Assembly: GCA_965197585.1 (NCBI GenBank) | Contig: OZ240215.1 | Span: forward strand, 1-64,000 | Direction of reading: 5' to 3' | Length of the DNA stretch: 64,000 nt | Origin: Dehalococcoidia bacterium | GTDB lineage: Bacteria > Chloroflexota > Dehalococcoidia > Plut-88900 | In this document: piece after piece, positions 8,157-50,113 of the stretch | Numbering within the stretch: the first letter of the stretch is position 1 | How the letters are laid out: each line of letters starts with the position of its first letter | Notes under the pieces: generated by a model | The model's database searches: none | Told to the model about the DNA's origin: nothing | The model's input: only the letters and a program-made list of their open reading frames with translations | Made by a program: the position numbers and the translations under genes

Positions 8157-8174
8157 GCGGGGCTGTCACACTCT

Positions 8175-32970: not shown

Positions 32971-33098
32971 GGGGGCCTCCGAGAGGGCAGAGATTGAGAG
33001 GATTATAGCGGATGCACGGGCTCGGATTGCGTAGCATCCATGTCGGGGATAGACTGTTTGGGTCTCGGGGCAGCTTTCAGTAATTTTGGAGGATATCC

Positions 33099-34163
33099 AT
33101 GCAACTTCCATTCGGGGTGATAGACGCGGACGGACACATCATTGAAGACCAGGCCCGGATCAGGGAGTACATGACTCCCCCGTACAACGAGTTCCTGATG
33201 GACAACCTCCCCGACGCCCAGGGCAGGGTCGGGCACGGGAGTGCGATCACCAACCGGGCATTTGCGGACTCGACCCTTGGGGGGAGGATGGGGGGTCTCG
33301 GGCCTGCGGGCTATCCGTTTCCCAAGGACTGGCTCGACGCCCTTGAATGGGGCGGCATGGAGATGACCTTCCTCTTCCCGACGACGCTGCTGACCTACGG
33401 GACCATCTGGGACCCGGACTATCTGAAGGCCGTTACCAGCGCCTACAACCGTTGGATGGCCGACGAGTGGATGAGCGTTAGCCCTAAACTGAAGGCCGTG
33501 TCCCTGGTCCCGCTAACCGACGTGGACGCCGGAACGAAGGAGATGCGCAGGACGGTGACGGAGGCGGGCTTCTCGGGGGTGATGCTGCCGGCGGTTGGGT
33601 TTGGCGGTTTCGGGGAGCGGAAATTCGACCCGTTCTTCGAAGAAGCGCAGTCCCTCGGATGCCTGGTGGCGGTACACGGCGGCACCTCCGAATACATGAA
33701 GTACACCAAGTTCATCCAGCGCCACACGACCGCATTTCCGATATCCAACATGCTGCAGTCGGTGCACATGGTTTACGGCGGTGTCTTCGAAAGGTTCCCG
33801 GACTTGAAAGTCGGATACCTGGAGACGGGGTGCACGTGGGTGCCCTTCTTCCTGGATAGGATGGACGAGGAATGGGAGAAGCGGGGCTGGCTCGAAACAC
33901 CGGACTGCACTCGCAAGCCCAGCGAGTACCTGAAGGGCGACAAGGTATGGTTCCACGCCGAGCCAAGCGAGACCCTGGTTCCCCAGGTGATCGACATCCT
34001 TGGCGAGGATTCCCTGTTCTACGCCTCGGACTGGCCGCACTGGGACAACGAATACCCGGAGAGCGTCGGGAACTTTTGGAATCGGGAGGATCTCTCGGAA
34101 GACGTGAAGAAGAAGATCCTGCGCGACAACTGCCTGGCTATGTACGGGGTAAACGGGGCATAG
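33099..34163 (+). CDS. Amidohydrolase_2 family metal-dependent hydrolase/decarboxylase
   Basis: IDADGHI, LFPT, AYNRW, GVFERFPDLKVGYLETG..WVP, YASDWPHWD. Confidence 0.88.
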   Translation: MQLPFGVIDADGHIIEDQARIREYMTPPYNEFLMDNLPDAQGRVGHGSAITNRAFADSTLGGRMGGLGPAGYPFPKDWLDALEWGGMEMTFLFPTTLLTYGTIWDPDYLKAVTSAYNRWMADEWMSVSPKLKAVSLVPLTDVDAGTKEMRRTVTEAGFSGVMLPAVGFGGFGERKFDPFFEEAQSLGCLVAVHGGTSEYMKYTKFIQRHTTAFPISNMLQSVHMVYGGVFERFPDLKVGYLETGCTWVPFFLDRMDEEWEKRGWLETPDCTRKPSEYLKGDKVWFHAEPSETLVPQVIDILGEDSLFYASDWPHWDNEYPESVGNFWNREDLSEDVKKKILRDNCLAMYGVNGA

Positions 34164-34172
34164 CCCGCCCAG

Positions 34173-35282
34173 TTATTCGTCCGACCCCAGCCTCTCCAGT
34201 ATCCACTGGTTGAACTTGTGTGGCAGGTGTTCCTGGGCGGAGTAGACCCCCTGCCGGTGCGCCCGAGACCTGAGCGCCTTCTGCACTTCTTCGCAGATGT
34301 CATAGTCCTGCTTTAAGACCCGGTCTAGGAAACCGACAGTGTCTGATGGGTCGAAGTCCGGGGACTCGATCACCGATTTCTCGAAAAGCCAGTCGACTGT
34401 GAGGCGGCAAGTGGTTGAAGAGACGGGCCACTTGTAGAAGACGAAGACTTGGTCCGGGAGCAGGCCGAAGAAAAGGTTGGGGTAGATGGTGACACTGCGG
34501 AACTTGGCTACGTCTTCCTGTGAGAGGGTGCTGATGATGGGCCGGGGCCCGAAACCCGTTTCCGAATAGGTCGTCGCTCCGTTGATAAGAGGTGCACCGT
34601 CCAGGGCCTCCTGGCCTATTGCGCCGTCCCTGAATGTAGGGTGGATTTCACAGAGCTCGGGGTGGACGCCGGGGCAATGATAGCACTCGACGTTGTTTTC
34701 CAGTACCAGCTTCCAGTTGGCTTTAATGTCGTAGACGTTCCGATGGCCGATTCGGAGATTGGCCAGGTTGTACTTGGGAAGCTTATCCGCAAGGACGCCG
34801 AGCTCCGGGACGAATGTTTCAGGATCACGAGACAAGTTCAAGAATATAAAACCTTCCCACAGTTGCACGACGACGGGATACAGGGAGAGTGGATCGCCAT
34901 TCAGGGAGGGCCGTGCGGTCATGTTGGGCGTGGCGACGAGGTCGCCGTCCAGGTTGTAGGTCCAGCCGTGGTAGCCGCAAACGAAGGCCTTGCCCCTGGC
35001 CTTCCCCGACTCGGTGGAGCAGAGACGGTTGCCGCGGTGTCGGCAGACGTTGTAGAAGGCCTTGATCTCACCGCTCTTAGACCTGACGACGATAATGCTT
35101 TCGTCGGCAATCTCACGGCGTAGGTAGTCACCCTCGCTGGGGAGTTCCTCGACTCGCGCGGCGCAGATCCAGGAGCGGTAAAAGATGCGCTCTTTCTCCT
35201 GCTCGTAGATGCCGGGATCGTAGTAGTAGGGGCTCGGGAGGGTGCGATTGAGGGCCGAGACCGCGGTGAGCTCTGCAACCAT
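34173..35282 (-). CDS. Rieske non-heme iron oxygenase alpha subunit (GbcA/choline monooxygenase/Stc2-like)
   Basis: Rieske CRHRG...CGYHGW, mononuclear Fe site NWKLVLENNVECYHCPGVH, C-terminal QD..ICE.VQ; start moved to MVAEL behind AGGAG. Confidence 0.9.
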   Translation of the reverse strand: MVAELTAVSALNRTLPSPYYYDPGIYEQEKERIFYRSWICAARVEELPSEGDYLRREIADESIIVVRSKSGEIKAFYNVCRHRGNRLCSTESGKARGKAFVCGYHGWTYNLDGDLVATPNMTARPSLNGDPLSLYPVVVQLWEGFIFLNLSRDPETFVPELGVLADKLPKYNLANLRIGHRNVYDIKANWKLVLENNVECYHCPGVHPELCEIHPTFRDGAIGQEALDGAPLINGATTYSETGFGPRPIISTLSQEDVAKFRSVTIYPNLFFGLLPDQVFVFYKWPVSSTTCRLTVDWLFEKSVIESPDFDPSDTVGFLDRVLKQDYDICEEVQKALRSRAHRQGVYSAQEHLPHKFNQWILERLGSDE

Positions 35283-35651
35283 GGCGACGCTCCTATCTCC
35301 AATGGGACCTGTGCTGTTCAGGAACCCCCGAATTTCTCCCCTTATGGCATGCACCCAAGCCATTCAGTTTGAGCCAATTCAAGGCCCTGGAAACGGCTTG
35401 GGTGCTTCAATGCGCCCAACTGAGCGTACCTCGTATTTGCCTACGTTACGGTCACTGTGTTCCGATGTGTTTGATTCGTGCGTCTGGTATGCGGGAGTCC
35501 ACGCTTGGCTGTCTTTGCGGGTGGGATTCGGGGTGCAGTAGTTCTCGATCGGTTCCCTTGGCGAACCGGCACGGATGCTTGCTGCAATTTCGCACTTTAT
35601 CAACCGAGCGGGACCGGGACCCTCGTCGCGCGTATGCCTCGGGAGCTAGCC

Positions 35652-35982: not shown

Positions 35983-37398
35983 CTATTGCGGGTTGGCGAT
36001 GGCGGGACGACGCCGGTCCGTCTGGCAACCTTCCAGGGCCTTTGCGGCCCTGAGCAGGGTGTGCTCGTCGAAGTGCCGGGCCACGAGCTGCACGCCAATG
36101 GGCAGGCCCTCTTCGCTCCAGCCGAAGGGAACGTTCATGGCGGGGGAGCCAGTAAGGTCCCAGGGGACGGTGGCCCGGAGGCTGTGCCTTGCGCCCATGG
36201 TCTTGCCGTCAATAACGAACTCTTCCCGACCTGCCTCGTAGGCGGGCATGGGTACTGTGGGGCAGAGGAAGATGTCGTAGCGGGTGAAGTACTCGCCGAC
36301 CTCCCACTTCAGCGACTCCCAGTTGAAGCTCGCCTCTAAGTACTCGTCGAACGTCTTGGCCGGGGCGTCGATGTAGCGCTTACGCAGCAACGGTGTCAGC
36401 TCCGACTCCCGTCCCCTGATTACGTCCATTAGAAACGCTTTTCCTTCCACCGTGTAAACCGCTGATGAGATCACTTGCGCATCATTTGTCCCCAGCCCTG
36501 GTATTTCCACCGGATCCACCTCCATCCCCAGCCCCGAGAGCGCGTCTGCCGCCTTTGCCACCACCTTCTGCACTTCCTCTTCTACCGGCGTCCCGCCCGT
36601 CGGGCTCCACCCGATCCGTAGCTTGGGCAAAGGACCATCCAGGTCGGTGTAATCGGGGACGGGGACGGGTGGGGCGTAGATGTCCTCGCCGTCGGCGCCG
36701 GCCATTATGGACAGGGCCAGGGCCACGTCCTGGACGTTTCGAGCCATGGGCCCGACGTGAATGGCCCGAAATAGTGTCTGTGGCACGACCCGCGTGTAGG
36801 GAACCCGGCCCAGAGTGGGCTTGAGGCCCGCCAAACCGCAGAAGCTGGACGGCTGCCGTATGGACCCCCCGAGGTCGGTCCCAACTCCCAGGGGTGACAT
36901 TCCGGTCGCCAGGGACGCACCCTCCCCACCGCTGGAACCACCGGGGGTGTAGCCGAGTTTCCAAGGGTTTTGGGTCGCCCCGAAGAGGAGGTTGTTGGTC
37001 TCCCACCAGAGGGCAAACTCGGGAAGATTGGTCTTGCCGAGGAGGATTCCACCCGCGCCCTTCAGCCGACTGTAAACGGTGGAATCGCCAGTGGAGATGT
37101 TGTCCGCAAGAATCTTGGAGCCCTGCGTGGCCAGCAGTCCAGCTACTTCAACGCAGTCCTTTAGGGTGAACGGCACTCCGTGCAAGGGCCCGAGCTCATC
37201 GCCGCGGGCGATTGCGGCGTCGGCTTCCTTGGCTAAGGTCAGGGGGTCTGGCGCGAACGTGACGATGGCGTTGAGAGTCGGGTTGAGGGCCGCAATGCGG
37301 TCCAGGTGCGCCTGCACGACCTCCTGCGAAGAGAACTTCTTGCCTCGAATGCCTTCAGCCAACTCCGTCGCCGAGAGCCAGCAGATGTCTTGGGTCAT
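35983..37398 (-). CDS. Amidase signature family protein
   Basis: GPLHGVPFTLKD, GKTNLPEF, PGGSSGG, GTDLGGSIRQP, GLPIGVQL. Confidence 0.95.
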   Translation of the reverse strand: MTQDICWLSATELAEGIRGKKFSSQEVVQAHLDRIAALNPTLNAIVTFAPDPLTLAKEADAAIARGDELGPLHGVPFTLKDCVEVAGLLATQGSKILADNISTGDSTVYSRLKGAGGILLGKTNLPEFALWWETNNLLFGATQNPWKLGYTPGGSSGGEGASLATGMSPLGVGTDLGGSIRQPSSFCGLAGLKPTLGRVPYTRVVPQTLFRAIHVGPMARNVQDVALALSIMAGADGEDIYAPPVPVPDYTDLDGPLPKLRIGWSPTGGTPVEEEVQKVVAKAADALSGLGMEVDPVEIPGLGTNDAQVISSAVYTVEGKAFLMDVIRGRESELTPLLRKRYIDAPAKTFDEYLEASFNWESLKWEVGEYFTRYDIFLCPTVPMPAYEAGREEFVIDGKTMGARHSLRATVPWDLTGSPAMNVPFGWSEEGLPIGVQLVARHFDEHTLLRAAKALEGCQTDRRRPAIANPQ

Positions 37399-37552
37399 GG
37401 TCGGGCCTCCTGGGTAAGTCTTGTTGTTATACTCTGCACAGAATATGTTACCAATGGCAATCCGGCAATCCGGCGGGCCTTAGGCGGCACACTGAATTCC
37501 CGGGGCAAGCTCTTTTGCTGGCATTGGTAGTTCCGCGTCGTGGGGAGGCACC

Positions 37553-39091
37553 GTGTTATCGAAGAAAGCTTGGTTGGTATTAGGGCTCTTGGCTTTAGGC
37601 ATCGTACTAGCTGCATGTGCCTCTGACCTGGAAGCCCCTCCCCCCACCCAGGACGTTGATGCTGCGGTGCGTACCGCCATAGCGGAAGCGCTTCCGACCC
37701 CCACCCCAACTCCAGTCCCAGATATCAGCGCCACCGTACAGGCGGAAGGTGAGGCGACTATAGCCGCCCAACCCACCCCGACTCCCATACCCGCGCCAAC
37801 TCCCATACCCGCGCCAACTCCCGCTCCCACTCCTACACCACTCCCCACTCCAACACCTACCCCCACTCCCACCCCACTGGCCACTCCAACACCTGCTCCC
37901 ACCCCTACTCCCACCGCGACACCCACTCCAACCCCGACTCCGTTTCCCACTCCGACTCCCATCCCCACCCCTGAACCCTCCACACCGCGCCCCCGTTCCC
38001 AGTGGACTCCCGATAACCCTGCCACCAGAGAAGAGATAGAGATCGAGCTGCAGAAATACCGGGGCGAAAGCCTTGTGTTCAGCTCCTGGGGCGGTGCATA
38101 TCAGCTAGCTCAGCGACAGGCTTACGCAATTCCATTCGAGGACCAATTTGGAATACAGATTGTCGACGTTTCTTCACCAACTCTCGGTAAGGTCAGGTCC
38201 ATACAGGAGTCCGGGAATGTCACATGGCACATTATCGATACAAGGGCTGGCTCTCTCCGCGACCTCGGCAGGAGCGGTCATCTCGAAAGCCTGAACTTCG
38301 GCATTATTGATAATCGAGACTTCCTGGACGTATTGAAGTCACCATACATAGGGGGTGGTGGGGTCACCTGGTCCGAGGTCTGGGCCTACAACACCGACCT
38401 GTTTCCAGAAGCTCGGAGACCACGCTCGATGGCCGACATATACAACACAGCTAAGTTCCCGGGAAGCCGGGGTTGGGCCCATTACCCTGATGCTGAGATG
38501 ATATTCGTACTCCTGTCGGAGAATCCCAGCCTCTTGAACACGGAGGAAGGACGGGCGAGTCTGTCTGCCTTAACTCCTGCTCAGGCGGATCGCGCATTCG
38601 AACTATTTGATGAGTATCGGGACCAGGTATCCATGATTTGGCAAAACAACACAGACTGTCCTTGGCGTCTCTCTAGGGGAGATTTGGCCTTGTGCAGTGG
38701 GTTCAATGACAGCATCTACGATGACGCCATTGAAGGGAACCCTATCCGGATTTGCTGGGAGTGTGGTCACGTCGTAAACACTGACGGTTGGAGCATCATA
38801 AGGGGTCTCAGGCGCCAGGACCCCCAAACCTTCGAGCTTGCCCAGCTCTATATGGCCTGGACAGGCCTACCCGAGAACAACGCCCGAGTGGCTCAATTCA
38901 TCGCCTACGGCCCCGTGAACCTGAGGTCACTGCCGCATCTGAATGGACCTGAATACAACGCAGTGCGCAATGACCTGCCTACCTCGCCTTCCAACCTGCC
39001 TTATGCCATCTTCAAGGATGAGGTCCACGTAGGGCGGTATACCGATACATGGCGTGAGCGCTGGATTTCATTCCAGCAGTCTATTCAGTAG
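37553..39091 (+). CDS. Lipoprotein with Pro/Thr-rich stalk and PotD/polyamine-type extracellular solute-binding domain
   Basis: Lipobox VLAAC, long (PT)n tract, then SWGGAYQ.AQRQA, V.SGNVTW.IID-like, AYNTD, KFPG.RG, IAYGPVN. Confidence 0.82.
37695..37975 (+). repeat. Coding low-complexity repeat encoding [11 protein letters not shown]
   Basis: Hexamer-based degenerate repeats (CCCACT/CCAACT/CCCACC); exact 18-bp duplication ACTCCCATACCCGCGCCA. Confidence 0.9.
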
Positions 39092-39179
39092 GGCCACCAG
39101 CACTTTTCGTGCCCGGTGTCAAGGAGATGGGCCTGTACAGTGCCTTCTCCCGATCTTGATAAGAAGTAGTTCCCTAGCC

Positions 39180-40397
39180 CTAATGCAGCGCCGCCGACGA
39201 AGCCGCACCCTTCTCATTTACCAGCCTGCCGTCCTTGAAGCGGTCTAACGAGAACGGCTTTATCAGGTCCGGCGTGTCCCCGGTGTCGATTAGCTCCGCC
39301 ATCATCTTCCCGGAAATGGGCGCGGCCTTGAATCCGTAGGTGCCCCAGCCGCAGTCGAGCAGGAATCCGTCCAGCCCCGAGACCGGCCCCATGATGGGCG
39401 CGTAGTCGGGGGTCATGTCACATATGCCGGTCCACTGCCGGAGGATGTTCACGTCTTTCAGGAAGGGGAACATTCTCAGCGCCCCGGCGGAAAGCTCCTC
39501 CATCATCGGGAAAGTCGACTTCTGAGAGTAGCTGGTGTAATGGTCGACGGCACCGCCCATGACGAGCTCACCGCGGTCGGTCTGGTAGACGTAGACGTGG
39601 AAATTGGTTGACGAGACACCGAGCTTTAGGATCGGTTTGAGGGGCTCGGTGACCATGGCCTGCAAGGGGTGAGTGATCATCGGAAGGTCAAGCCCGACCA
39701 TCGCGGCGATGGTCGAACTCCAAGCGGCGGTGCAGTTGATGACCAGGTCGGTCTGGATGGGGCCCCGGTTGGTCTCGACCCCCGTGACCCGGCCATTGCT
39801 CTGGTTTATGGCGGTTATCTCGGTGAAGGGGTGAATCTCTGCGCCCCGGCGGTCGGCGGCACGGGCGTAGGCCCAGATCACGGCGTCATGGCGGATGACA
39901 CCGGCGGGCGGATGGTAGAGCCCCGCCAGAACTGGGAGATCGTTACCCTCGCGCATGTCGAGAACGGGTACGAGCTCGCGGATATCGTCGGTGCCGATAA
40001 TCTTGCTGTCGACACCCAGGGCGGCGTTGGCCTCCGCGCGGAGGCGGAGGGCATAGACCGAGGACTCGGTGTGGGCAAGCTCAAGTCGGCCCGTCTGGCT
40101 GAAGAGCAGGTTGTATCCCAGGTCCTGCGAGAGGTCTTCGTAGAGCTTGACGCTTTCGTAGAAGAATGGGATGCCCTCGGGCGTCACGTAGTTGGCCCTG
40201 ATGATGGCCGTAGAGCGGGCACTGGCCCCACCCCCCAGATACCCCTTGTCCAGGACGGCGACGTTGGTAATACCCCGCTGCCCGAGGTAATAGGCGATTG
40301 CAAGGCCGTGCACCCCGGCCCCGGCTATGACAATGTCATACTGGGGCTTGAGGTGCGGGTCCCGCCACATCCGCTCCTTTTTGAATAGCTGGAACAT
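39180..40397 (-). CDS. soxB: Sarcosine oxidase beta / N-methylglutamate dehydrogenase subunit A (MgdA-like)
   Basis: YDIVIAGAGVHGLAIAYYL, RSTAIIRANY, RHDAVIWAYARAAD, HPLQAMVTEP, CDMTPD, GWGTYGFKA; start at MFQLF overlapping the upstream stop (TGATG). Confidence 0.92.
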   Translation of the reverse strand: MFQLFKKERMWRDPHLKPQYDIVIAGAGVHGLAIAYYLGQRGITNVAVLDKGYLGGGASARSTAIIRANYVTPEGIPFFYESVKLYEDLSQDLGYNLLFSQTGRLELAHTESSVYALRLRAEANAALGVDSKIIGTDDIRELVPVLDMREGNDLPVLAGLYHPPAGVIRHDAVIWAYARAADRRGAEIHPFTEITAINQSNGRVTGVETNRGPIQTDLVINCTAAWSSTIAAMVGLDLPMITHPLQAMVTEPLKPILKLGVSSTNFHVYVYQTDRGELVMGGAVDHYTSYSQKSTFPMMEELSAGALRMFPFLKDVNILRQWTGICDMTPDYAPIMGPVSGLDGFLLDCGWGTYGFKAAPISGKMMAELIDTGDTPDLIKPFSLDRFKDGRLVNEKGAASSAALH

Positions 40398-41590
40398 CAG
40401 AGGGGCACCACCCGCAGAGACCTCTCCTGGGCAGTCAGTGACTCCCAACCGGTCTCGGTGACAAGGACGGTCTCGCTGAAGCCGACACCCCGCTTCCCTG
40501 GCACATGGATTGTGAGGGGCGTGTGGAAGGTCATGCCCGGCAGTAAGGGCTCGTCCACACCCTCTGCGATGAAGATCAGGTCCTCTCCCCAGATCGAGGG
40601 CACGCCTATGCCCACGGAATAGCCGAAGTTCTCTATGAAAAACGCCTCCTCGGCGACGGACCCGACAGCCTTCTTCGCCTCCATCGCAACGTCGTGGCAT
40701 GTGCGGCCTGGCCTGATGTTGGAGGTCAGCACGTCGAATGTGCGAAGCATGGCGTCGGTCATTCTTAGGGTGAGGTCGTCTGGCGGGCCGAGCGATGCGG
40801 AGCGCATCATCAGGGCGTCGTAGCGCTTGTAGGACGCTCCGAGCTCCATGTATACCAGGTCACCGGGTGCAATGGGGAACCGTGCATGGAAGGAGTGGTG
40901 AAAGCCGGTGCGATGCCCGGTCATGATGTTCTGCCACTTGGTGAAATACTCGCTTCCGGCGCGGATCATGGCCTCGTGGCAGGCGGCAGAGAGGTCGTTG
41001 TCCGTTTTGCCGGGGGCGATCTCGGCCATCGCCGCCTCGATGCCCAGGACGGTTAGCCGCCCAGCCTCCCGCATGTACTCTATCTCCGCCGCAGACTTTG
41101 TCTTGCGGACCTGGTAGACGAGCCGGGAGGCGTCGATGAAAGAGGCGTTGGGAAGGGTCTCGGTCAGGCGTCGGTGTTGGTTGACGTGCAGCCCCGACAC
41201 CCCAGTCTCGACGCCGATGGCCTTGGAATCGAGGCCCTTCTCCTTGAGAATTCCACCAAGCAGGTCCATGGCCCATGCGGCGTCGTAATAGTGATATAGC
41301 TCGACGTCCCGGATCCAGCCGGTGGCGAACACTGCGCCAAGCTCGACGTCTGCAATGTGAATCGTCGGCGAGCCCTCGATGGGAAGGATGAGACAGGCGT
41401 AGCGGTTGGGGATGATGGTGTTATAGCCGGTGAGATAGTAGAGGTTGGGGAGATGGGTGATGAGAAGAACCTCGACGCCCGCGTCGGCCATTAGAGAACG
41501 CACCTTGGCAATGCGGCCCTGGAACTCGGCCTCGGGGAAGGGGGTCTCTGAGGGCGTCGGATTTTCCTGTAAAAATTTTAGTGGGTCCAT
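40397..41590 (-). CDS. M24-fold hydrolase, ectoine hydrolase (DoeA/EutD)/creatinase-like
   Basis: F.EAEF..RIAKVR, NLYYLTGY, KSAAEIEYMREAG, GYSVGIG.P..WGE, LLPGMTFH, SETVLVTETG; canonical Xaa-Pro peptidase metal ligands mostly substituted; start moved to MDPLK. Confidence 0.8.
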   Translation of the reverse strand: MDPLKFLQENPTPSETPFPEAEFQGRIAKVRSLMADAGVEVLLITHLPNLYYLTGYNTIIPNRYACLILPIEGSPTIHIADVELGAVFATGWIRDVELYHYYDAAWAMDLLGGILKEKGLDSKAIGVETGVSGLHVNQHRRLTETLPNASFIDASRLVYQVRKTKSAAEIEYMREAGRLTVLGIEAAMAEIAPGKTDNDLSAACHEAMIRAGSEYFTKWQNIMTGHRTGFHHSFHARFPIAPGDLVYMELGASYKRYDALMMRSASLGPPDDLTLRMTDAMLRTFDVLTSNIRPGRTCHDVAMEAKKAVGSVAEEAFFIENFGYSVGIGVPSIWGEDLIFIAEGVDEPLLPGMTFHTPLTIHVPGKRGVGFSETVLVTETGWESLTAQERSLRVVPL

Positions 41591-41603
41591 ATTCTCAATT
41601 CCG

Positions 41604-42347
41604 TTACCAGGGTATTCCTGGGTTGTCCGAGGAAATCTGTTCAAAGGCCCCGATTCCGATGGGTGACACGCCGACACCCTTACCCGCATGGACCAGGGCG
41701 TCCCACACGTATTCTCCATAGTCGCGGGTAACGTACAGTTGGCAGGCGTAGTGCCCCGAGACGTCGCCGCGAACAAGGAGAGAGTGGACCTCGGCTGTCT
41801 TGGCTTGCGCACATGCGCCATCGAGGAACCTGTCGGGGTCCAAGTCCAGCTCGACGAGCTTTGCAAGGGCTTCCCGGCTGCGAGGCCCCATGATCCCGAT
41901 ACCCGCCCACGCAGAGGTCAGGTCGATCATGTGGGCGCAGCCTGAAAGCGCCTCTTCAAGGGCCTCGGCGATGGAGTCCCGTGACCCGGGAGAAGTCAGC
42001 ACCAGCGCCTCATCATAGGTGAGAGCCGCTACCGTGACCGACTCTCGGCTGTCCTCGCTGGCCGTCGGGCTCGGGCATCTTATGGCTCTGCCAACGGTGA
42101 GGGACTCCGGGAAGGCAAGGGCGCGCGGCAGTTCAGTCAACACGTCTGCGCCCTGAAAAGATAGCTTGCCAATCGGACTGATATCGAATATCCCGCCGCC
42201 GTTGATGGCCCGGGACACCTCATCGTCGCTGGAGGAGTAGTGAGAGGGCAGCTTCCATCCGTCTCGATATAGGAACTCGGCGCCCAACACCTGGTGGGCC
42301 CCGTGCATCGCGGTGAGCTTGGCTAGCGCTGCCGTAGTTGAATCCAT
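41604..42347 (-). CDS. soxG: Sarcosine oxidase gamma-like / MgdD-like subunit (GcvT folate-binding fold)
   Basis: FDISPIGKL, DLTSAW..I.I.GPRSREALAK...LDL, RDYGEYVWDAL; position directly after soxA. Confidence 0.75.
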   Translation of the reverse strand: MDSTTAALAKLTAMHGAHQVLGAEFLYRDGWKLPSHYSSSDDEVSRAINGGGIFDISPIGKLSFQGADVLTELPRALAFPESLTVGRAIRCPSPTASEDSRESVTVAALTYDEALVLTSPGSRDSIAEALEEALSGCAHMIDLTSAWAGIGIMGPRSREALAKLVELDLDPDRFLDGACAQAKTAEVHSLLVRGDVSGHYACQLYVTRDYGEYVWDALVHAGKGVGVSPIGIGAFEQISSDNPGIPW

Positions 42348-42357
42348 AAAAGTCGCC

Positions 42358-45300
42358 TTACTCCCTCAGGCGTACGCCTTCAGGATCGTAGACGGGTGCA
42401 TGGCGGACTCGGGCGTAGGCGACCCCGCCTGGCACCCGAATCTCGATTCGCTGACCCTCAGCGGCGAGCCGGTCGGGGACCCAGGCCAGCCCGAATCCCT
42501 TGCCGATGGACGGGCTGAACCGCGAGCTTGTTACCTTGCCCACCGGCCACCCGTGCTCCAGGACTGGGCTCCCGTCTTCGGCCACCGCTCCGTTTTCCAT
42601 TACGAACCCGACCATCCGGTTGCGGTAACCGCGTTCGGAGACCTGCTTGAGGGCCTCTCGGCCTATGAAATCGTCCTTTTCGAACTTGACGGCCCACGCC
42701 ATGTCGGCTTCAAGTGGGTTGGACATGACGTCGGTGTCCTGACCGGGTATCAGGTGCTTCTTCTCCAGCCGGAGGACACGCTGGGCCTCCACCCCGAAGG
42801 GCAAGATGCCAAACTCCTCCCCGGCTTCCAGCAGGGCCTCCCAGACGTGCTCACCGGCCTCGGCGGGGAAGTGAAGCTCCCAACCCGCCTCCCCGACGAA
42901 CCCGACGCGAAGGAGAAGGGTCGGTACTCCGGCAACCTGGCCCTTGGCGCTGCGCATGTATCTAAACTTGTCCTTGGACAGATCAACATCGGTGAGCTTC
43001 TGAAGGGTGTCTCGGGCCCGGGGCCCGGCGACGTTCACTGCGGCGAACCCGGGGGTCACGTTGGCGATGTGGGCACACATATCCGTGCCGACCAACCACC
43101 ACCTGAACCACTCCTCGATAAGGTCTATGTTGCCGGTCCCGGTGGTGACATAATAACGGTCGTCGGCGAGCCGCGTGACAGTGCCGTCGTCCATGATGAT
43201 TCCGCTGTCCGAGCAGATAATCCCATACCGGATCCACCCGACTCTCAGGTTGGAGAAATAGTGAGTGTAGATATGGTCAAGTAGCGCCGGTGCGTCCTTC
43301 CCGACTACGTCCAGCTTGCCAAGGGTGCTCACGTCGATGATGCCGACGCGGTTTCGGACTGCCTCGATCTCCTCCATGGGATCCCGGTAGGAGTGGGGTC
43401 TCTTCCATTGCCCGACCTCGGCGATCTTTCCACCGGCCCTTACGTGAGCGTAGTGGATGGGGGTCATCCTGAAGGGCATGTGCCCCGGCCCGGCTATTGC
43501 GCCGAGGGGTGTGGGTCGGAAGGGAGGCCGGGAGGTCGTCCCACCCACAGCGTCAAGGCTCCGCCCCGTGGCTTGCGAGATGACCTTCGTGTAGCTCTTG
43601 TGGCACATCTTCCCCTGGCAGGGCCCCATTGAGACAGTGCTATAACGCTTGAGCGACTGGACATCGGCGAAGCCCTCGTCTATGGCTTGCCGGACGTCCT
43701 TCTCGGTTACGTCTTCACATATACATACAAATTTCTTGGCACGGGCGGCCTTCTTGCCGGAGATTCCTCCCGTGATGCGGGGTGGGGTGGAGGATAGCTC
43801 GTCCCGGTAGGCCTTTTCACGGCGGTCAAGCTCGGCCTTCAGACTCGAAAGAGCCTCCGAGTCTGCGTTGCCTGCGCCCGATGCCTCCGCAGCCTCGAGG
43901 CCCGCAACCCGACCCTGCACCATATTGATTTCGGAGTCATGGATGCCTGTTACGTCACCGGCGGCATATATGGAGTCAGGCAGACTCACAGGAACGGACG
44001 CGACTAGGGTTTCGTCGTAGGTCAGCTTTGCGTCGGCGTGGGAAAGGAGGGCGGTGACGGGGTCGGGGTTGGGGGCCAGGCAGAGGAAACCGCACTCAAG
44101 ACGATGTTCGCCGCTCCCAGCGTTGCTTTCGAGAAGCACTGCTTCTATCTTCCTTACGCCCTCCGCCTTTACCACTCTCCATCCATTGAGCAGACCGACT
44201 CCTCGCCCCCGGAGGTCCCTAGCTAAGGGGGTATCGCGGTGGGGCCGGTAATCTACTACGGCGCTTACGTTTACGCCCGCGTCCGTCAATTGAACGGCAG
44301 CTTTTAGGCCTTCGTCGCTGTCCGTTACTATCACGCCCCGGCCCCCGGGGCTCACGCCGTACAGATTGGCCAGCCGCAGTGCGCCACTGCTGAGCATGAT
44401 TCCGGGAAGGTCGTTGTTGGGGAATACGGCAGGCGATTCCTGGGCTCCGGCGGCTACCACAACTTGACCCGCTCTCAGCTTAACTATGCGCTCGCTCTGG
44501 TGGACGGTAACCATGTTGCCTTGGTAGACGGCCATTGCGGAGGCGTCAGATAGGACTTGGATTCGGCTATTTGCGTGGACGGATTCGGCGAGGCGTCTGG
44601 CGAGTTCATAACCGAGAACAGGAGAATTACCCTGCCTTTCTCCCGTCTGGGGAGAGGGGAGGATGTTGTAACGCAGATGTCCCCCGAGGGAGGGTTGGTC
44701 ATCTACGAGTGTGACCCGCACTCCGGCCTCCGCGGTCGCAAGTGCTGCGCTCAAACCGGCGGGCCCGCCACCGATTACCGCTACGTCGGTATAGGCGTTG
44801 ACGTGCTCATACTCGGTGTCCGGGATTCGACTCGTATCCACGGTGCCGAGCCCGGCGACCCGCCTGATTACCGGCTCGGCGAGATGCCAAGCGACCTTGG
44901 GCCGGATCAGGGTCTTGTAGTAGAAACCGACCGGCATCAGCCGGTCGAAGTACTGCAAGGCGGAAAGGGCGTCGTTCTCGACGGAAGGCCAGGCGTTCTG
45001 CCCCGCTACATCCATGCCGTCGGCCGCGGCGCAAGCGCAGGCACGGACGTTAGGAGCGCCGTCCACGTTCATCATGCAGTTCGGGCATCGGCCCGACACG
45101 CAAAGGAGCCCCCTCGGCCGGTGGTATTTGAAACTGCGGCCGAAGATATCTATGCCGGACGCGTAGAGCGCCGAGGCAACAGTGTCACCGGGATAGGCGA
45201 GTATGCGCTTGCCTTCGTGGTTGAAATAGACGTTGCGTGACCGGTCTATGATCTGGGATGGGTGGGCTGGGAGCCTGCGTTGCCTCAACTCAACCCTCAT
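42358..45300 (-). CDS. soxA: Sarcosine oxidase alpha / NMG dehydrogenase large subunit (2Fe-2S, Rossmann, BFD-like and GcvT domains)
   Basis: GDTVASAL, RSFKYHRPRG, C..G.CPNC, GGGPAGL, CICEDV, KRYSTVSMGPCQGKMC, DVSTLGKL, LRLEK. Confidence 0.93.
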   Translation of the reverse strand: MRVELRQRRLPAHPSQIIDRSRNVYFNHEGKRILAYPGDTVASALYASGIDIFGRSFKYHRPRGLLCVSGRCPNCMMNVDGAPNVRACACAAADGMDVAGQNAWPSVENDALSALQYFDRLMPVGFYYKTLIRPKVAWHLAEPVIRRVAGLGTVDTSRIPDTEYEHVNAYTDVAVIGGGPAGLSAALATAEAGVRVTLVDDQPSLGGHLRYNILPSPQTGERQGNSPVLGYELARRLAESVHANSRIQVLSDASAMAVYQGNMVTVHQSERIVKLRAGQVVVAAGAQESPAVFPNNDLPGIMLSSGALRLANLYGVSPGGRGVIVTDSDEGLKAAVQLTDAGVNVSAVVDYRPHRDTPLARDLRGRGVGLLNGWRVVKAEGVRKIEAVLLESNAGSGEHRLECGFLCLAPNPDPVTALLSHADAKLTYDETLVASVPVSLPDSIYAAGDVTGIHDSEINMVQGRVAGLEAAEASGAGNADSEALSSLKAELDRREKAYRDELSSTPPRITGGISGKKAARAKKFVCICEDVTEKDVRQAIDEGFADVQSLKRYSTVSMGPCQGKMCHKSYTKVISQATGRSLDAVGGTTSRPPFRPTPLGAIAGPGHMPFRMTPIHYAHVRAGGKIAEVGQWKRPHSYRDPMEEIEAVRNRVGIIDVSTLGKLDVVGKDAPALLDHIYTHYFSNLRVGWIRYGIICSDSGIIMDDGTVTRLADDRYYVTTGTGNIDLIEEWFRWWLVGTDMCAHIANVTPGFAAVNVAGPRARDTLQKLTDVDLSKDKFRYMRSAKGQVAGVPTLLLRVGFVGEAGWELHFPAEAGEHVWEALLEAGEEFGILPFGVEAQRVLRLEKKHLIPGQDTDVMSNPLEADMAWAVKFEKDDFIGREALKQVSERGYRNRMVGFVMENGAVAEDGSPVLEHGWPVGKVTSSRFSPSIGKGFGLAWVPDRLAAEGQRIEIRVPGGVAYARVRHAPVYDPEGVRLRE

Positions 45301-45574
45301 TCCCGGCAGGTAAACTCGGGCCCTGCCCCGGCCAGTAGGTGGCCGATACCCGGTTGTTCAGTGTATTGCGCTGGGCATGAAACCAGCGTCGGCAGCCGTA
45401 CTTGTGATACCACCACTCCTGCTGAAGACCGGCAACATTCTTGCTCAGGTAAAAATAGGCTGACCATGTCTCCTCTGGGTCGCCGGGGGAGGGGCGGGCT
45501 GAGACCTCGCCGCCGAAACGGAAGTCGTTGACAGACCTGGGGCCGCAGTTCGGGCAGCTTAAAAGGAAGGACAT
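45290..45574 (-). CDS. soxD: Sarcosine oxidase delta / MgdB-like Zn-binding subunit
   Basis: CPNCGPR, FRFGGE, EWWYH..GCRRWF...RNT. Confidence 0.92.
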   Translation of the reverse strand: MSFLLSCPNCGPRSVNDFRFGGEVSARPSPGDPEETWSAYFYLSKNVAGLQQEWWYHKYGCRRWFHAQRNTLNNRVSATYWPGQGPSLPAGNEG

Positions 45575-45669
45575 GGCGCTATGACGGGAGGCGCGGGCTC
45601 ATGTGGCGGGGGTTGCAGAGCTTGAGTTTGATTGCCTTGGAACGCAAGAGTACAGATTGACCGGGGCCT

Positions 45670-47040
45670 CTAGAACATGGTGAGGTACCGGTCCACCTCC
45701 CATTGACTCACCTGCCGGTGATAGTCGACCCACTCTGCCTCTTTCACCTTCATAAACTCGTCGTAGATAGGCCCAAGGGCCTCCCGCACGACCTGATCGT
45801 TTTTCAGCTCGTTTAGGGCCTCGGGGAGGCTCTGTGGGAGGACCCGGATGCCGCGCCTGTTGATCTCCTCCATACCGAGGGCGTAGGTGTTTTCGAAGTT
45901 CGCCGCGCCGGGATCCATCTCGTTCTTGACGCCGTCCATTCCGGCCAGGACGTATGCTGAGAAGGCGAGATAGGGGTTGCACCCCGAGGACATCGTCCGG
46001 TCCTCCAGGTGTCCGGGCCCCGCGGTACGGATCATCTGCGTTCGGTTGTTGTCGCCGTAAGAGATAAAGGCGGGCGTCCATGTAAAGCCCGACCGCGAAC
46101 CGGTGAGAGCAGAACCCATCTGGAGCCGCTTGTAGCAGTTCACCGTCGGCGAGTTGATGGCGCAGAGGGCCGGCGCGTGTTTCAGAATACCGCCGATGAA
46201 GTGGTACGCCATCTTGGACAGCCCGAGACCCTGGGGGTCGGAATTGTCTATCAAGACGTTCTCCCCCGTCTTGGCGTCGGCTACGTGGAAGTGGATGTGG
46301 CCGGCGCTGCCGGTCCTGTCTCCGAAGGGCTTGGCCATGTGGGTGGCGATTGCACCATGCTTTCGGGCTACCTGGCTGGTCATCATCTTGAAGAAGGTGT
46401 AGCGGTCGGCGGTGGTGAGGGCGTCGGAATAATCGAAGTTGATCTCGTACTGGCCGCTGCCGTCCTCATGGTCGGACTGGTAGACGCCCCACCCGAGGCC
46501 GTTCAGGCCGTCGGTCATCTCCTTCAGATAGCCGAGGACGCCGGATATGCCCTTGTAGTCGTAACAGGGCTTTTCGAGGTTGTCGACGTCAGCCGGGTCG
46601 AAGATCTTAATCTTGCCTTTCCTTTTGCCTTTCTTTTTGCGTTTTACAAGAAAGTGCTCGGGTTCAATCCCGACGTTAAATACGAAACCCTGGTCCCGCA
46701 GCTCTCCCAGCACCTTCTTCATGTGCTGCCGGGGGCAGTAGGGGTGAGGCTCGCCGTCTACGAACAGATCGGAAGCGAAGCGCGCGGTATCGGGGTCCCA
46801 GGGGAGGGGAGTGTAGGAGTCGATGTCGATACGGGCGGCCATGTCGTGGGCGTTGGGGCCCTGGCCCATGCCGTGGAGCGAACCCCCGGCGAAGCCCGCG
46901 CCATCGTCGACAACGTTATCAAATGTGGAAGCGGGGACAAGCTTGACCTTGGCGGCCCCATGAATGTCGACGAACTGGGTGAGGATGTACTTGATCCCGT
47001 CCCGGGTCATCCGCTCCCGTATCTGCTCTCTGTTGGCCAT
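45670..47040 (-). CDS. gmaS: Gamma-glutamylmethylamide synthetase (GlnT-type glutamine synthetase homolog)
   Basis: QFVDIHG..K.KLVP, GAGFAG, KPCYD, DHEDGSGQYEINF, NSPTVNCYKRL, TW.PAFISYGDNNRT; sits between mgsC and sox genes. Confidence 0.88.
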   Translation of the reverse strand: MANREQIRERMTRDGIKYILTQFVDIHGAAKVKLVPASTFDNVVDDGAGFAGGSLHGMGQGPNAHDMAARIDIDSYTPLPWDPDTARFASDLFVDGEPHPYCPRQHMKKVLGELRDQGFVFNVGIEPEHFLVKRKKKGKRKGKIKIFDPADVDNLEKPCYDYKGISGVLGYLKEMTDGLNGLGWGVYQSDHEDGSGQYEINFDYSDALTTADRYTFFKMMTSQVARKHGAIATHMAKPFGDRTGSAGHIHFHVADAKTGENVLIDNSDPQGLGLSKMAYHFIGGILKHAPALCAINSPTVNCYKRLQMGSALTGSRSGFTWTPAFISYGDNNRTQMIRTAGPGHLEDRTMSSGCNPYLAFSAYVLAGMDGVKNEMDPGAANFENTYALGMEEINRRGIRVLPQSLPEALNELKNDQVVREALGPIYDEFMKVKEAEWVDYHRQVSQWEVDRYLTMF

Positions 47041-47088
47041 GCTCTGCTCCGGTTGAGGCTCTAGCCTGTTCGAGATGCGTTCGGGCGG

Positions 47089-48393
47089 CTAGTCAAACCC
47101 GAACACCTTGTCGGTGCCTACCAGCGGGATGCGGGCCATGGCGGAGGCTTCGATTGTCAGGGCCGCCAGGTCCTCGGGCTCGAGACTGTGAACGTCGCTC
47201 TTGCCGAGGGACCGGGTGATGAGTGCCAGCTCCATCGTCATGGCGTTGAGGAAGTTAGCGACGCGTGCGCCGCCCTCTTCGGGGTCGAGCCTCTTCTCAA
47301 GCTCCGGGTCCTGCGTGGCGATGCCCACTGGGCACTTGCCCGTCTGACAGTGGTGACACATCCCTGCAGGAACTCCGACCTCTTCTTCGAAGTTGGCTTC
47401 CGGGATGTCCCGGTTGCAGTTGAGTGCGATGAGAGCGGAGATGCCAATGGCTACTGCGTCGGCGCCGAGGGCCAGGGCCTTGGCCACGTCCACCCCGCTC
47501 CTGATTCCTCCCGAGGCTATGAGGGTCACCTTCCCGTACATCCCGATCTCCCGCAGCGCCTCGCGGGCAAGGACAATGGCTGGTACGGTGGGAATGCCTG
47601 AGTGATCGAGGAGGATTTCGGAGGAAGCGCCCGTGCCAGCTAACATGCTGTCAATGACTATGGCGTCAGCGCCGGCCTTGGCGGCCAGCTTAACGTCGTC
47701 CTTGACTCGGCAGGCCCCCAGCTTGATGCTGATGGGAACGCGCCAGTCCGTGGCTTCCCTCAGCTGTTCTATCTTGATGGGAAGGTCGTCCGGCCCGAGC
47801 CAGTCGGGGTGTCGAGTGGGACTGCGCTGGTCGATACCCGTGGGCAGGTCCCGCATCTCGGCGATGTGGTCCAGCACCTTGACGCCCATGAGCATGCCAC
47901 CGGTGCCGGGCTTCGCGCCCTGCCCGACGCAGATTTCAATGGCGTCGGCCATCATGATGTGGTGAGGATTGACGCCGTAGCGGCTGGGCAGAATCTGATA
48001 TATGAGCTTGTCGGAGGCTTCCCGCTCGGCCATGAGCATTCCGCCGTCGCCGGTGCAGGTGGCGGTGCCCACCTCCGAGGCCCCCTTCCCGAGGGATACC
48101 TTGGCATTGCGGGACAGAGCGCCGTAGCTCATCCCCGTGATGTATATGGGTGTTTCCAGCACCAGGGGGTTCTTGGCGTTTCCTTCTCCAATCACCGTGC
48201 GGGTGCTGCACTTCTCCTTGTAGCCTTCCAGTGGGATTCGGGTGAGGCCCGTGGAGAGGAAGGTCAGATCGTCGAAGTGGGTTACCTTCTGAAAGGTAGA
48301 GAAGCCGCGGATGCGGTAACGGCCAAGGTCGGCCTTGGCGTGGATGTCTTCCATGACCCAGGGGGAGTAGATCTGGCTGCTGTTCATTACCAT
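47089..48393 (-). CDS. mgsC: N-methylglutamate synthase subunit C (FMN-binding glutamate synthase family)
   Basis: GRYRIRG, FDDLTF, PLEGYKEKC, GMSYGALS, GQGAKPGTGG, IDQRSPTRHPDW.GPDDL, CHHCQTGKCPVGIATQDPEL; start moved to MVMNS behind AAGGA. Confidence 0.9.
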   Translation of the reverse strand: MVMNSSQIYSPWVMEDIHAKADLGRYRIRGFSTFQKVTHFDDLTFLSTGLTRIPLEGYKEKCSTRTVIGEGNAKNPLVLETPIYITGMSYGALSRNAKVSLGKGASEVGTATCTGDGGMLMAEREASDKLIYQILPSRYGVNPHHIMMADAIEICVGQGAKPGTGGMLMGVKVLDHIAEMRDLPTGIDQRSPTRHPDWLGPDDLPIKIEQLREATDWRVPISIKLGACRVKDDVKLAAKAGADAIVIDSMLAGTGASSEILLDHSGIPTVPAIVLAREALREIGMYGKVTLIASGGIRSGVDVAKALALGADAVAIGISALIALNCNRDIPEANFEEEVGVPAGMCHHCQTGKCPVGIATQDPELEKRLDPEEGGARVANFLNAMTMELALITRSLGKSDVHSLEPEDLAALTIEASAMARIPLVGTDKVFGFD

Positions 48394-48403
48394 GGCAGAA
48401 TCC

Positions 48404-49087
48404 TTAGACGACCCTTTTCTCGAAGCGCTCAAGCGCGTCGAAGTGGTAGAGCTTCTTGGCGGAGACCACCTTCTTGAACTGGAAGCGTTCGCTTATACCG
48501 AAGCTCTGGAGCGTTTCCCAAATTTCCAGTAGTTCGTCCTCGGAGGCAGTCTCCTCCTTGGCGTCGCTCCCGAGCGAGCCAATGTTACCGGCGACGTATA
48601 TCTCGCCCTCGTACATAGAGTCCCCGACCGCGTCTCCGACATCGCCGCAGATGATAATGCGGCCTTTCTGCATCATATAGCCGGTTAGGAATCCGGCGTT
48701 GCCCCGGATGATTAGGTCTCCGCCCTTCATGGAGATGCCTGCCCGTGCCCCGGCGTCCCCCCCAACGAACATTTGTCCACCCCTGAGGGTCGCGGCAACT
48801 GATGCGCCCGCGCTGCGGGTCAGGGTTATGCGGCCACTCATCATGTTCTCGCCCAGGGCCCATCCGGCGTTGCCGTTGATAGTAACCTCAGGGCCGTCCA
48901 GGAGGCTGGCACACAGGTACCCAACGCTTCCCTCGACTGTTATCTTGCATTCCTTCAGCACCCCGATAACCAGGTTGTGCCGCGCCTGGGGGTCGATAAT
49001 GTGAACCTCTTCCCCTGCGTTCACCAGCTCCTTGACCCGGGTGTTGATCTCCCGGATGGTCATGTCTCTGGCGTTTATATCAACCAA
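48404..49087 (-). CDS. mgsB: N-methylglutamate synthase subunit B (GXGXG/GltB C-terminal beta-helix)
   Basis: GSVGY, GNAGW..GENMMSG, RAGISMKGG, GDSMYEG.IYV.G. Confidence 0.9.
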   Translation of the reverse strand: MVDINARDMTIREINTRVKELVNAGEEVHIIDPQARHNLVIGVLKECKITVEGSVGYLCASLLDGPEVTINGNAGWALGENMMSGRITLTRSAGASVAATLRGGQMFVGGDAGARAGISMKGGDLIIRGNAGFLTGYMMQKGRIIICGDVGDAVGDSMYEGEIYVAGNIGSLGSDAKEETASEDELLEIWETLQSFGISERFQFKKVVSAKKLYHFDALERFEKRVV

Positions 49088-49989
49088 GTCATGACCTCGT
49101 TCTGCTGGGGCTCGACCCGCTCTATCTCCTCGTCGAACACGGAGCGGAGGGCGACTTCCTCGGAGGCGAGGGCTACCACGTCGTCGGTCTCCATGAGGAC
49201 CAGGGGCTTGAGGGCGAGGGAGTCCTTGGCGGATCCCATGCCCTGGTCGGTAGAGACCAGGTAGGTGAATGAACCGTCCAGATCATCCAGTGAGGCGTAG
49301 AGGGCGTCTTCGAGGGCCGCGCCGCGGGCAAGCTTCTCGGCCAGGTAGACGGCGATAAGCTCGGAGTCATTCCCGGTCTGGAAGCGATGACCTTCGTCCT
49401 CGTACTTGCGCTTCATCTTGTGATAGTTGGTCAGCTGGCCGTTGTGTACGACGGTAACGTCAGGGAAGGGGTAGGCCCAGAAGGGGTGGGAGTGGGTGAT
49501 GTCGACCCGGCTCTCGGTGGCTAGGCGCACGTGCCCGATGCCGTGCGTCCCTTTCATAGTGCCAATGCCGTGCTTGTCGTCGAGTTCCACGCCCGTGCCC
49601 ACGTCCTTCACGACCTCGGAGTTCTGGCCGATGCTGTGGATAGTCACGCCGGGCAGCTCGTATAACGAGGCCGCGAGGGAGTTGAGGTCACCTTCATAGT
49701 TGACGTTGAGGCGTAGAAATTCGTCCGTCGACTGCCGGTTTCTTACAACCCCGCCTTTGGCAACCACCGCCTCTTCGACCGCTCTGAAGCGGCCCCGGTA
49801 GTCGGCGTCGGGATCGGACCAGACCCTGACAATGAAGTCGGAATTGGAGTCTTCCCCGGCCACGGTGATGCCCGTGGAGTCGATTCCCCGGTGCTTCATG
49901 GCATCCAGCATACGGACGAGCTCTTCGCCTATGGGAGCCAGGGCGGAGGCTCCCGCATGCTTATGCATTATTCCGCTAATACCACACAT
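49075..49989 (-). CDS. mgsA: N-methylglutamate synthase subunit A (class II glutamine amidotransferase)
   Basis: N-terminal MCGI nucleophile, HRG.DSTG, IGHVRLATES, HPF, VHNGQL.N, NDSE, LDGSFT. Confidence 0.9.
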   Translation of the reverse strand: MCGISGIMHKHAGASALAPIGEELVRMLDAMKHRGIDSTGITVAGEDSNSDFIVRVWSDPDADYRGRFRAVEEAVVAKGGVVRNRQSTDEFLRLNVNYEGDLNSLAASLYELPGVTIHSIGQNSEVVKDVGTGVELDDKHGIGTMKGTHGIGHVRLATESRVDITHSHPFWAYPFPDVTVVHNGQLTNYHKMKRKYEDEGHRFQTGNDSELIAVYLAEKLARGAALEDALYASLDDLDGSFTYLVSTDQGMGSAKDSLALKPLVLMETDDVVALASEEVALRSVFDEEIERVEPQQNEVMTWLI

Positions 49990-50067
49990 CTCTTTACTCC
50001 CTAGAGATCATGTCAAAGGAATTTGGGCCTGCATAACTGTCAGCATCCCAGCCTAGACAACCGCACC

Positions 50068-50096
50068 ATTATATATGTGGGTGTATGAGTGGGCAA
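50068..50096 (-). promoter_or_regulatory. Sigma70-type promoter of the mgs/gmaS/sox cluster
   Basis: Minus strand TTGCCC-17 bp-TATAAT, about 80 bp upstream of mgsA. Confidence 0.7.
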
Positions 50097-50113
50097 GGAA
50101 GAACGGGCCTCCC

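Follow-up and report, generated by a model that had tools for sequence, protein, structure and literature searches.

We analysed a 64,000-nucleotide stretch of DNA (positions 1 to 64,000 of contig OZ240215.1, assembly GCA_965197585.1; hereafter the window) from a Dehalococcoidia bacterium, in which nine co-oriented genes on the minus strand follow one another in the order mgsA-mgsB-mgsC-gmaS-soxD-soxA-soxG-M24-soxB. Eight of these correspond to the known genes of the N-methylglutamate (NMG) pathway of methylamine oxidation. The remaining gene, at 40397..41590, encodes a 397-residue DoeA-like hydrolase of the M24 family without metal ligands, which we call P0001; its open reading frame (ORF) and translation match PF01321 and PF00557. 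Comparison across genomes identifies it as a genus-specific, selected accessory gene and not as a general component of the pathway.

The M24 gene begins with an ATG at 41590-41588 and ends with a TGA at 40399-40397. A first-pass annotation, made from the sequence alone, had placed it between soxG and soxB after a 13-nt gap, and we recovered the same coordinates, strand and length. The spacer (41591..41603, minus strand) runs from the soxG TAA to the M24 ATG and contains a weak GAG/GGA Shine-Dalgarno-like stretch; read on the minus strand, the junction is CCC TGG TAA-CGGAATTGAGAAT-ATG. At the downstream end, the M24 stop and the soxB start overlap in a TGATG (40395..40399, minus strand; CCC CTC TGATG TTC), where one base is common to both codons, the A of TGA being the A of ATG. 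The gene is embedded in the NMG dehydrogenase genes and coupled to them, as that annotation had described. The 13-nt spacer and the stop/start overlap argue for one predicted transcript carrying M24 together with the mgs, gmaS and mgd genes. All spacers in the operon are too small for an internal promoter, and a promoter-like sigma-70 site lies directly upstream of mgsA (50068..50096, minus strand; 10/12 positions). It is the single such site in 38800-50400, where 3.0 are expected by shuffling, and is weak evidence. Contigs from RNA libraries, with about 92% identity to the window, join soxA, soxG, M24 and soxB in one case (39572-43628) and soxG, M24 and soxB in the other (40074-41804), showing that a relative with the same gene arrangement occurs in RNA libraries; they come from two metatranscriptomic libraries of one study, DNA carry-over is possible, and such contigs cannot prove a single transcript.

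The genes around M24 make up a complete NMG cluster. The synthase part comprises an mgsA-like class-II amidotransferase subunit (49075..49989; Pfam GATase_6/7), an mgsB-like GXGXG subunit (48404..49087; Pfam GXGXG, 70.7 bits) and an mgsC-like subunit with a flavin mononucleotide glutamate-synthase domain (47089..48432; Pfam Glu_synthase, 326 bits), all on the minus strand like the rest of the operon. The latter two are single-copy in the 3.43-Mb genome. The start of mgsC is uncertain, alignments with relatives beginning at residue 11-13. Next comes a gmaS-like type III glutamine-synthetase homolog (45670..47040; Pfam Gln-synt_C), which scores 537.5 bits with TIGR03105 and exceeds its cut-off of 469.6; elsewhere in the genome it has one match, partial and 32% identical. 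The dehydrogenase part consists of a 94-residue soxD/mgdB-like subunit (45290..45574; Pfam SoxD, 88.7 bits), a 980-residue soxA/mgdC-like subunit (42358..45300; Pfam GCV_T, Fer2_4, SO_alpha_A3 and GCV_T_C; TIGR01372, 773 bits, below cut-off), a 247-residue soxG/mgdD-like subunit (41604..42347; Pfam GCV_T, 111 bits; TIGR01375 soxG, 38.7 bits, below cut-off) and, beyond M24, a 405-residue soxB/mgdA-like subunit that binds flavin adenine dinucleotide (39180..40397; Pfam DAO, 251 bits; TIGR01373 soxB, 438 bits, below the cut-off of 529). We read the low NCBIfam scores of the sox subunits as divergence in this phylum. The 247-residue gamma-like subunit carries a GCV_T folate-binding domain instead of Pfam SoxG and shares 32% identity with the GCV_T region of soxA next to it.

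A second, canonical soxB-soxD-soxA-soxG operon lies elsewhere in the genome (G000:C1:2318533-2323037, L097), with a Pfam SoxG-type gamma subunit, and is followed by a methylenetetrahydrofolate reductase gene. This operon, at 2.318-2.323 Mb, probably encodes the genome's actual sarcosine-type oxidase. Because a canonical soxBDAG operon is present elsewhere, mgsB and mgsC are single-copy and gmaS is unique apart from the partial match, the sox-type genes of the window are best read as the N-methylglutamate dehydrogenase of the NMG operon. The pathway is described as three enzymes, GMAS, NMGS and NMGDH, that is, gamma-glutamylmethylamide synthetase and the synthase and dehydrogenase of N-methylglutamate (PMC5023228). 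All eight genes of the canonical cluster (gmaS, mgsABC, mgdABCD) are present here, contiguous and co-oriented. The cluster of the window departs from the canonical one in a ninth gene, which separates the gamma-like from the beta-like dehydrogenase subunit and is confined in this place to one genus, and in having the beta gene in last position.

Within that genus the arrangement is invariant. Gene order is identical in all eight congeners (9/9 with the window genome), the M24 orthologs are 87-98% identical, and the overlap of the M24 stop with the soxB start is kept in every one, as TGATG in four and TAATG in four. The ratio of nonsynonymous to synonymous substitution rates (dN/dS) of M24 against the window copy is 0.027-0.057 in the seven of eight comparisons in which dS is unsaturated, compared with 0.027-0.054 for soxB, 0.035-0.089 for gmaS and 0.063-0.124 for soxA. 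Purifying selection on M24 is as strong as on the core genes. The GC content of the gene (0.611) and of its third codon positions (0.789) is in line with the neighbouring genes.

Beyond the genus, we found no orthologs among the genomes searched. The best matches there are 39-46% identical, which is the level of the paralogs, and none above 50% identity occurs in about 870 genomes. None was found outside the genus in the whole order (12 genomes); a class sample of 401 genomes, the window genome (G000) included, gave matches above 50% identity from the genus only, and in a phylum sample of the same size, again with G000, P0001 matched its own genome only. A scan of genome contigs returned, apart from the eight congeners, matches of at most 35% identity, none of them with sox genes, and a scan of metagenomes for M24-sox synteny yielded a single contig of 1315 bp. 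In a FastTree phylogeny of 137 family members, P0001 falls in a clade with a support of 100 that includes metagenomic proteins down to 60% identity, the deeper branching of P0001 being unsettled. Metagenomic homologs (P0005-P0012) share 60-81% identity with P0001.

The pathway itself is more widespread. True mgsC orthologs (59-86% identity) occur in nine genomes of other genera in the class sample, and the five NMG operons among them that are complete (G010, G011, G273, G359 and G194) all lack M24, soxG leading directly into soxB. G010 and G011 represent the two operon-bearing sister genera in the family of the window genome. The other four clusters stand outside this count, since the contigs of G042 and G335 end early and the clusters of G244 and G332 run past the retrieved stretch; the order of G042 contains that genome alone among those searched. 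The pathway therefore runs without the M24 gene, which is present in 9/9 genomes of the genus and in 0/5 complete clusters of other genera. No alternative hydrolase was seen in its place at the operon flanks of those genera, and, within the library searched, no listed paper connected an NMG cluster with a gene of the M24, creatinase or DoeA-like kind. The co-occurrence of orthologs with mgs, gmaS and sox genes, proposed earlier as a check, thus holds for the eight congeners and fails for every complete operon outside the genus, and the earlier suggestion of an undescribed variant of the pathway is not supported as a general one.

Two of the M24-free operons hint at how the present arrangement arose. 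In G273 a TGATG combines the stop of soxG with the start of soxB; before the insertion, soxG was therefore probably coupled to soxB in the way that M24 is now. On both flanks G010 is collinear with the window (Metallophos, operon, amidase, Amidohydro_2), yet it lacks the M24 gene, as well as the solute-binding protein gene and the Rieske gene of the window, which makes a single gain of M24 in the ancestor of the genus the most economical reading. By these comparisons, the ancestor of a single Dehalococcoidia genus most likely acquired the M24 gene at the soxG-soxB junction, where it took over the stop/start coupling to soxB.

To what family the inserted gene belongs is clear at the level of the fold. 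P0001 scores 69.4 bits with Creatinase_N (cut-off 22) and 106.1 bits with Peptidase_M24 (cut-off 23). An AlphaFold2 model built with 113 homologs has a mean predicted local distance difference test score of 95.3 and a predicted template-modelling (TM) score of 0.93, and in Foldseek searches DoeA, prolidases and creatinases all match it with a probability of 1.00. P0001 is a member of the Peptidase M24 / creatinase-prolidase superfamily. Within this superfamily, its nearest solved relative by both sequence and fold is DoeA, in agreement with the ectoine-hydrolase-type pattern noted earlier. A sequence search of the PDB ranked DoeA of Halomonas elongata first (E 2.4e-38), followed by PepE (2.1e-23) and then creatinases (3.5e-18 to 2e-14). 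The structural comparison with creatinase and DoeA that the first-pass annotation had called for gave the same order: DoeA entries come first in Foldseek, with TM-scores of 0.86-0.88 at 28-29% identity, and creatinases follow with 0.83-0.84 at 20-22% identity. The best NCBIfam models are likewise two ectoine-hydrolase models (NF038259 and TIGR02993), DoeA_2 at 206.5 bits against a cut-off of 575 and the other at 160.6 against 613. A search of the ESM Atlas returned generic M24 clusters and nothing more specific.

The active site departs from that of the metallopeptidases. We located the five metal-ligand columns by HMMER alignment to the canonical dipeptidase PepE (4ege) and by a MAFFT alignment that included canonical paralogs from the same genome. 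At these columns P0001 has E249 for Asp, L260 for Asp, Y324 for His, P358 for Glu and, as the only canonical residue, E373. A histidine, H356, stands two residues ahead of the canonical-Glu column and is conserved in at least 90% of the 113 homologs. The pattern E/L/Y/H/E given earlier is thus fair shorthand, and the four motifs quoted with it all occur in the translation; strictly, the columns read E/L/Y/P/E, and the histidine is an additional, family-specific residue. DoeA has E, P, Y, a residue other than Glu, and E at the same columns (6twj alignment). In the alignment of the 113 homologs R256 and Y257 are invariant, and H232, E249, Y324 and E373, like H356, are kept in at least 90% of rows. 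From these alignments, P0001 is shown to be a predicted cytoplasmic enzyme of pita-bread fold (Creatinase_N plus M24) from a large, mostly uncharacterised DoeA-like branch that appears to lack the dinuclear metal site and to keep a His232/Glu249/Arg256-Tyr257/Tyr324/His356/Glu373 constellation.

DoeA, the closest of the known systems, is a creatinase-like hydrolase of ectoine, a cyclic amidine (PMC3187862). DoeA/EutD of H. elongata (6twj, 6twk and 6yo9) has the same two domains, Creatinase_N and pita-bread fold, and its metal ligands are likewise replaced; in a pairwise alignment it has the H/E/Y/H/E constellation H232, E249, Y324, H356 and E373 in common with P0001, and R256-Y257 besides. It differs in residues adjoining the catalytic ones, where P0001 has HH against PH at 231-232, D258 against H, L260 against P and T357 against F, and in its context, which is ectoine catabolism and not methylamine oxidation. 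P0001 is not a DoeA by any membership criterion that we tried, falling far below both NCBIfam cut-offs at 28-29% identity, yet by analogy it probably works like one. Creatinase (1chm, 1kp0 and 7yto) shares the fold, and is described as another M24 enzyme that is a C-N hydrolase and not a metallopeptidase (PMC3187862). Two candidate creatinase references from our own searches were rejected, one (L044) being a canonical prolidase and the other, a paralog with an N/D/Y pattern, having DoeA again as its best match.

P0001 has many relatives in its own genome (3.43 Mb, 92% complete), where 28 M24 matches were found, the next best being 41% identical. Among 24 paralogs that we tabulated, 14 have the DoeA-like Glu...Tyr signature and three the full canonical D/D/H/E/(D) set. 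Proteins like P0001 are named 'Xaa-Pro aminopeptidase', 'M24 family metallopeptidase' or 'Xaa-Pro peptidase' in databases; judged by their ligand positions, most products of this genome annotatable as 'Xaa-Pro peptidase' are probably not metallopeptidases.

What P0001 does for its host is a matter of more graded confidence. The reading we favour, tentatively and by analogy with its relatives, is that P0001 may be a metal-independent amidine or guanidine hydrolase tied to the NMG pathway. DoeA and creatinase are both described as hydrolases of a C-N bond, the former in an amidine, the latter in a guanidine (PMC3187862). Like them, P0001 would hydrolyse, without a metal, a C-N bond in some small cationic amidine or guanidine and, being made in step with the NMG dehydrogenase, would connect this substrate with the pathway. 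The reaction would yield methylamine or an N-methyl amino acid, together with urea or an acyl product: methylguanidine, for example, would give methylamine and urea, and a creatine-like compound an N-methyl amino acid and urea. GmaS, Mgs and Mgd would then oxidise the methylated amine or N-methyl amino acid so released. We favour a link to the pathway because M24 is predicted to be co-expressed with the dehydrogenase subunits. The genome contains a urease alpha gene, so that urea could be used. In its most specific form, this reading makes P0001 a new entry to the pathway that might split methylguanidine or a creatine-like compound into urea and a methylamine or N-methyl amino acid oxidised by the same operon, which we regard as doubtful. 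Creatinase produces sarcosine, on which sox-type oxidases act, and P0001 has sox-type genes on either side; however, the flanking oxidase belongs to the mgs/gmaS operon, the canonical soxBDAG lying elsewhere in the genome.

Several observations weigh against the favoured reading. P0001 is one of 28 M24 matches in its genome, and the five complete NMG operons of other genera do without it. Its similarity to creatinase is distant, at 20-22% identity and an E-value of 3.5e-18 at best. No transporter or further enzyme was gained alongside M24 in a way that would hint at a substrate; between congeners, the neighbouring solute-binding protein shares only 31-57% identity. The NMG operon of G359 (L081, G359:C34) has a HIT-domain gene between mgsC and gmaS (5617-6078 of L081) and a toxin-antitoxin-like pair, DUF433 plus DUF5615/PIN-like, between gmaS and soxD (7704-8344); these inserts are unrelated, and position in the operon alone is therefore no proof of a role in the pathway. 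The nearest paralogs and homologs of P0001 stand in unrelated contexts, next to genes for a short-chain dehydrogenase/reductase, a LysR protein, a DUF1989 protein, an ATP-binding cassette (ABC) permease, RidA, a metallo-beta-lactamase-fold protein and an aminotransferase, and homologs on plasmids lie near amino-acid ABC transporters, M20 and C45 peptidases and a racemase.

Some of the same observations support the main rival explanation, in which P0001 is a passenger: a DoeA-like M24 paralog that landed between soxG and soxB, acts on a substrate unrelated to methylamine oxidation and shares only the regulation of the operon, for example under nitrogen or C1 limitation. With so many M24 copies in the genome, the Glu...Tyr signature in 14 of the 24 tabulated, the gene missing from the complete operons of other genera, unrelated inserts in that of G359 and heterogeneous contexts of the homologs, this explanation is a real possibility, if one to which we give less credence. 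It sits poorly with a precise insertion whose stop/start overlap is kept in all eight congeners down to 87% identity, and with a dN/dS equal to that of the core subunits. A position between two subunits of one enzyme is, moreover, costly unless co-expression is useful, and a distant homolog also has a sox operon nearby. This homolog, DoeA-like and 37% identical to P0001, is found on the Mesorhizobium plasmid NZ_AP023251.1 (L092, 8184-19053), about 4 kb from soxBDAG, where this M24 branch and sox genes are paired for a second time, independently. Its neighbours there include a GntR regulator, N-formylglutamate amidohydrolase, aldehyde and alcohol dehydrogenases and the soxBDAG operon.

P0001 could also be a metabolite-repair or by-product hydrolase that re-opens a cyclic amidine or related ring derived from a pathway metabolite, which we consider unlikely. 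One candidate substrate is cyclised gamma-glutamylmethylamide, the N-methyl analogue of the glutamine-derived cyclic amidine known from the ectoine-synthase literature; another is a diamino or amido acid to which formaldehyde has added. The reaction of DoeA is the ring opening of a cyclic amidine carboxylate, as described in PMC3187862, and P0001 has the catalytic constellation in common with it. The M24 gene adjoins a formaldehyde-producing dehydrogenase, and a separate cluster of the genome has two EctC-like genes beside M24 and DAO genes, making cyclic-amidine chemistry plausible in this organism. Sister genera, however, run the same operon without M24, and we found nothing to indicate that such rings arise from the pathway intermediates. 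Formation of a lactam or amidine from gamma-glutamyl amides in water, moreover, normally expels the amine.

Three further explanations carry little weight. A non-catalytic or scaffolding partner of the NMG dehydrogenase, stoichiometric with SoxG and SoxB, would suit the position between two subunit genes and the coupling to soxB, but it is improbable given that the putative catalytic residues H232, E249, Y324, H356 and E373 are all conserved, that the dehydrogenase operon is complete without M24 in other genera and that the known relatives are free-standing enzymes. A true ectoine hydrolase (DoeA/EutD), suggested by the best PDB, fold and NCBIfam matches, is very improbable at 206 bits against 575 and 160 against 613 and at 28-29% identity to DoeA: EutD is reported to work with, and to need, a juxtaposed deacetylase, EutE (PMC8739950), whereas TIGR02994 and PF04952 have no match to an eutE/doeB product in the 92%-complete genome and none occurs among the window neighbours. 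A conventional Xaa-Pro dipeptidase or aminopeptidase with a metal requirement, the reading implied by the database names and the Pfam Peptidase_M24 match, is hardly tenable, since P0001 shares fold and domain order with PepE (4ege) and PepQ/prolidase (1pv9, 1wy2) but replaces four of the five ligand positions of their D/D/H/E/E site to give E/L/Y/P/E, the first being Glu for Asp, and reaches 94 bits with the PepQ/prolidase models against a cut-off of 630; on this point the first-pass annotation, which had set the protein apart from plain Xaa-Pro metallopeptidases, was right.

The eight genes of the NMG pathway are treated as a fixed module for which gmaS serves as the marker. That a ninth is conserved, if only in one genus, means that the module has been extended in uncultured marine Chloroflexi. 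The M24 gene also offers a concrete handle on a very large DoeA-like branch of M24 proteins, which are called 'Xaa-Pro peptidases' although most of those examined here appear to lack the metal site. Were the favoured conversion of a guanidine or amidine to a methylated amine true, two pools of dissolved organic nitrogen would be connected through it. If the more specific new entry, starting from methylguanidine or a creatine-like substrate, exists, an orphan activity would gain a sequence, and the large DoeA-like M24 expansion in these bacteria its first assigned function. If P0001 is only a passenger, it cautions against taking operon position as a guide to function where paralogs abound in a genome.

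Downstream of soxB, the window contains a gene for an amidase-signature amidase (35983-37398, minus strand). Its ortholog in G010 is 63% identical and lies directly after soxB on the same strand, with a gap of 42 nt; because of this position, the amidase may be an older accessory gene of the operon than M24. Between amidase and operon, a gene for a solute-binding protein of the SBP_bac_8 family (37553-39091, plus strand) is convergent with the operon and has a long Pro/Thr-rich N-terminal linker. The congeners' identities of 31-57% for this protein compare with 87-98% for the operon genes. An ORF antisense to it (37480-38025) is a low-complexity artefact of the Pro/Thr-rich repeat. Farther along, the neighbours at 30285-35363 are related to C1 and amine metabolism: they encode FolD (30285-31271, plus strand), a gamma-glutamyltransferase (31258-33111, minus strand; NCBIfam cut-off exceeded), an Amidohydro_2 protein (33099-34163, plus strand) and a GbcA-like Rieske oxygenase (34173-35363, minus strand; 232 bits against a cut-off of 670).

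The cluster with EctC-like genes lies outside the window, at G000:C1:2578000-2590000 (L096). It opens with two tandem genes for 277-residue proteins, each with two Ectoine_synth (EctC-like cupin) stretches, and continues with a PD40/DPPIV_N protein, an M24 paralog, a DAO-family oxidase and a second M24 paralog. This gene set looks built for cyclic-amidine or ectoine-like chemistry.

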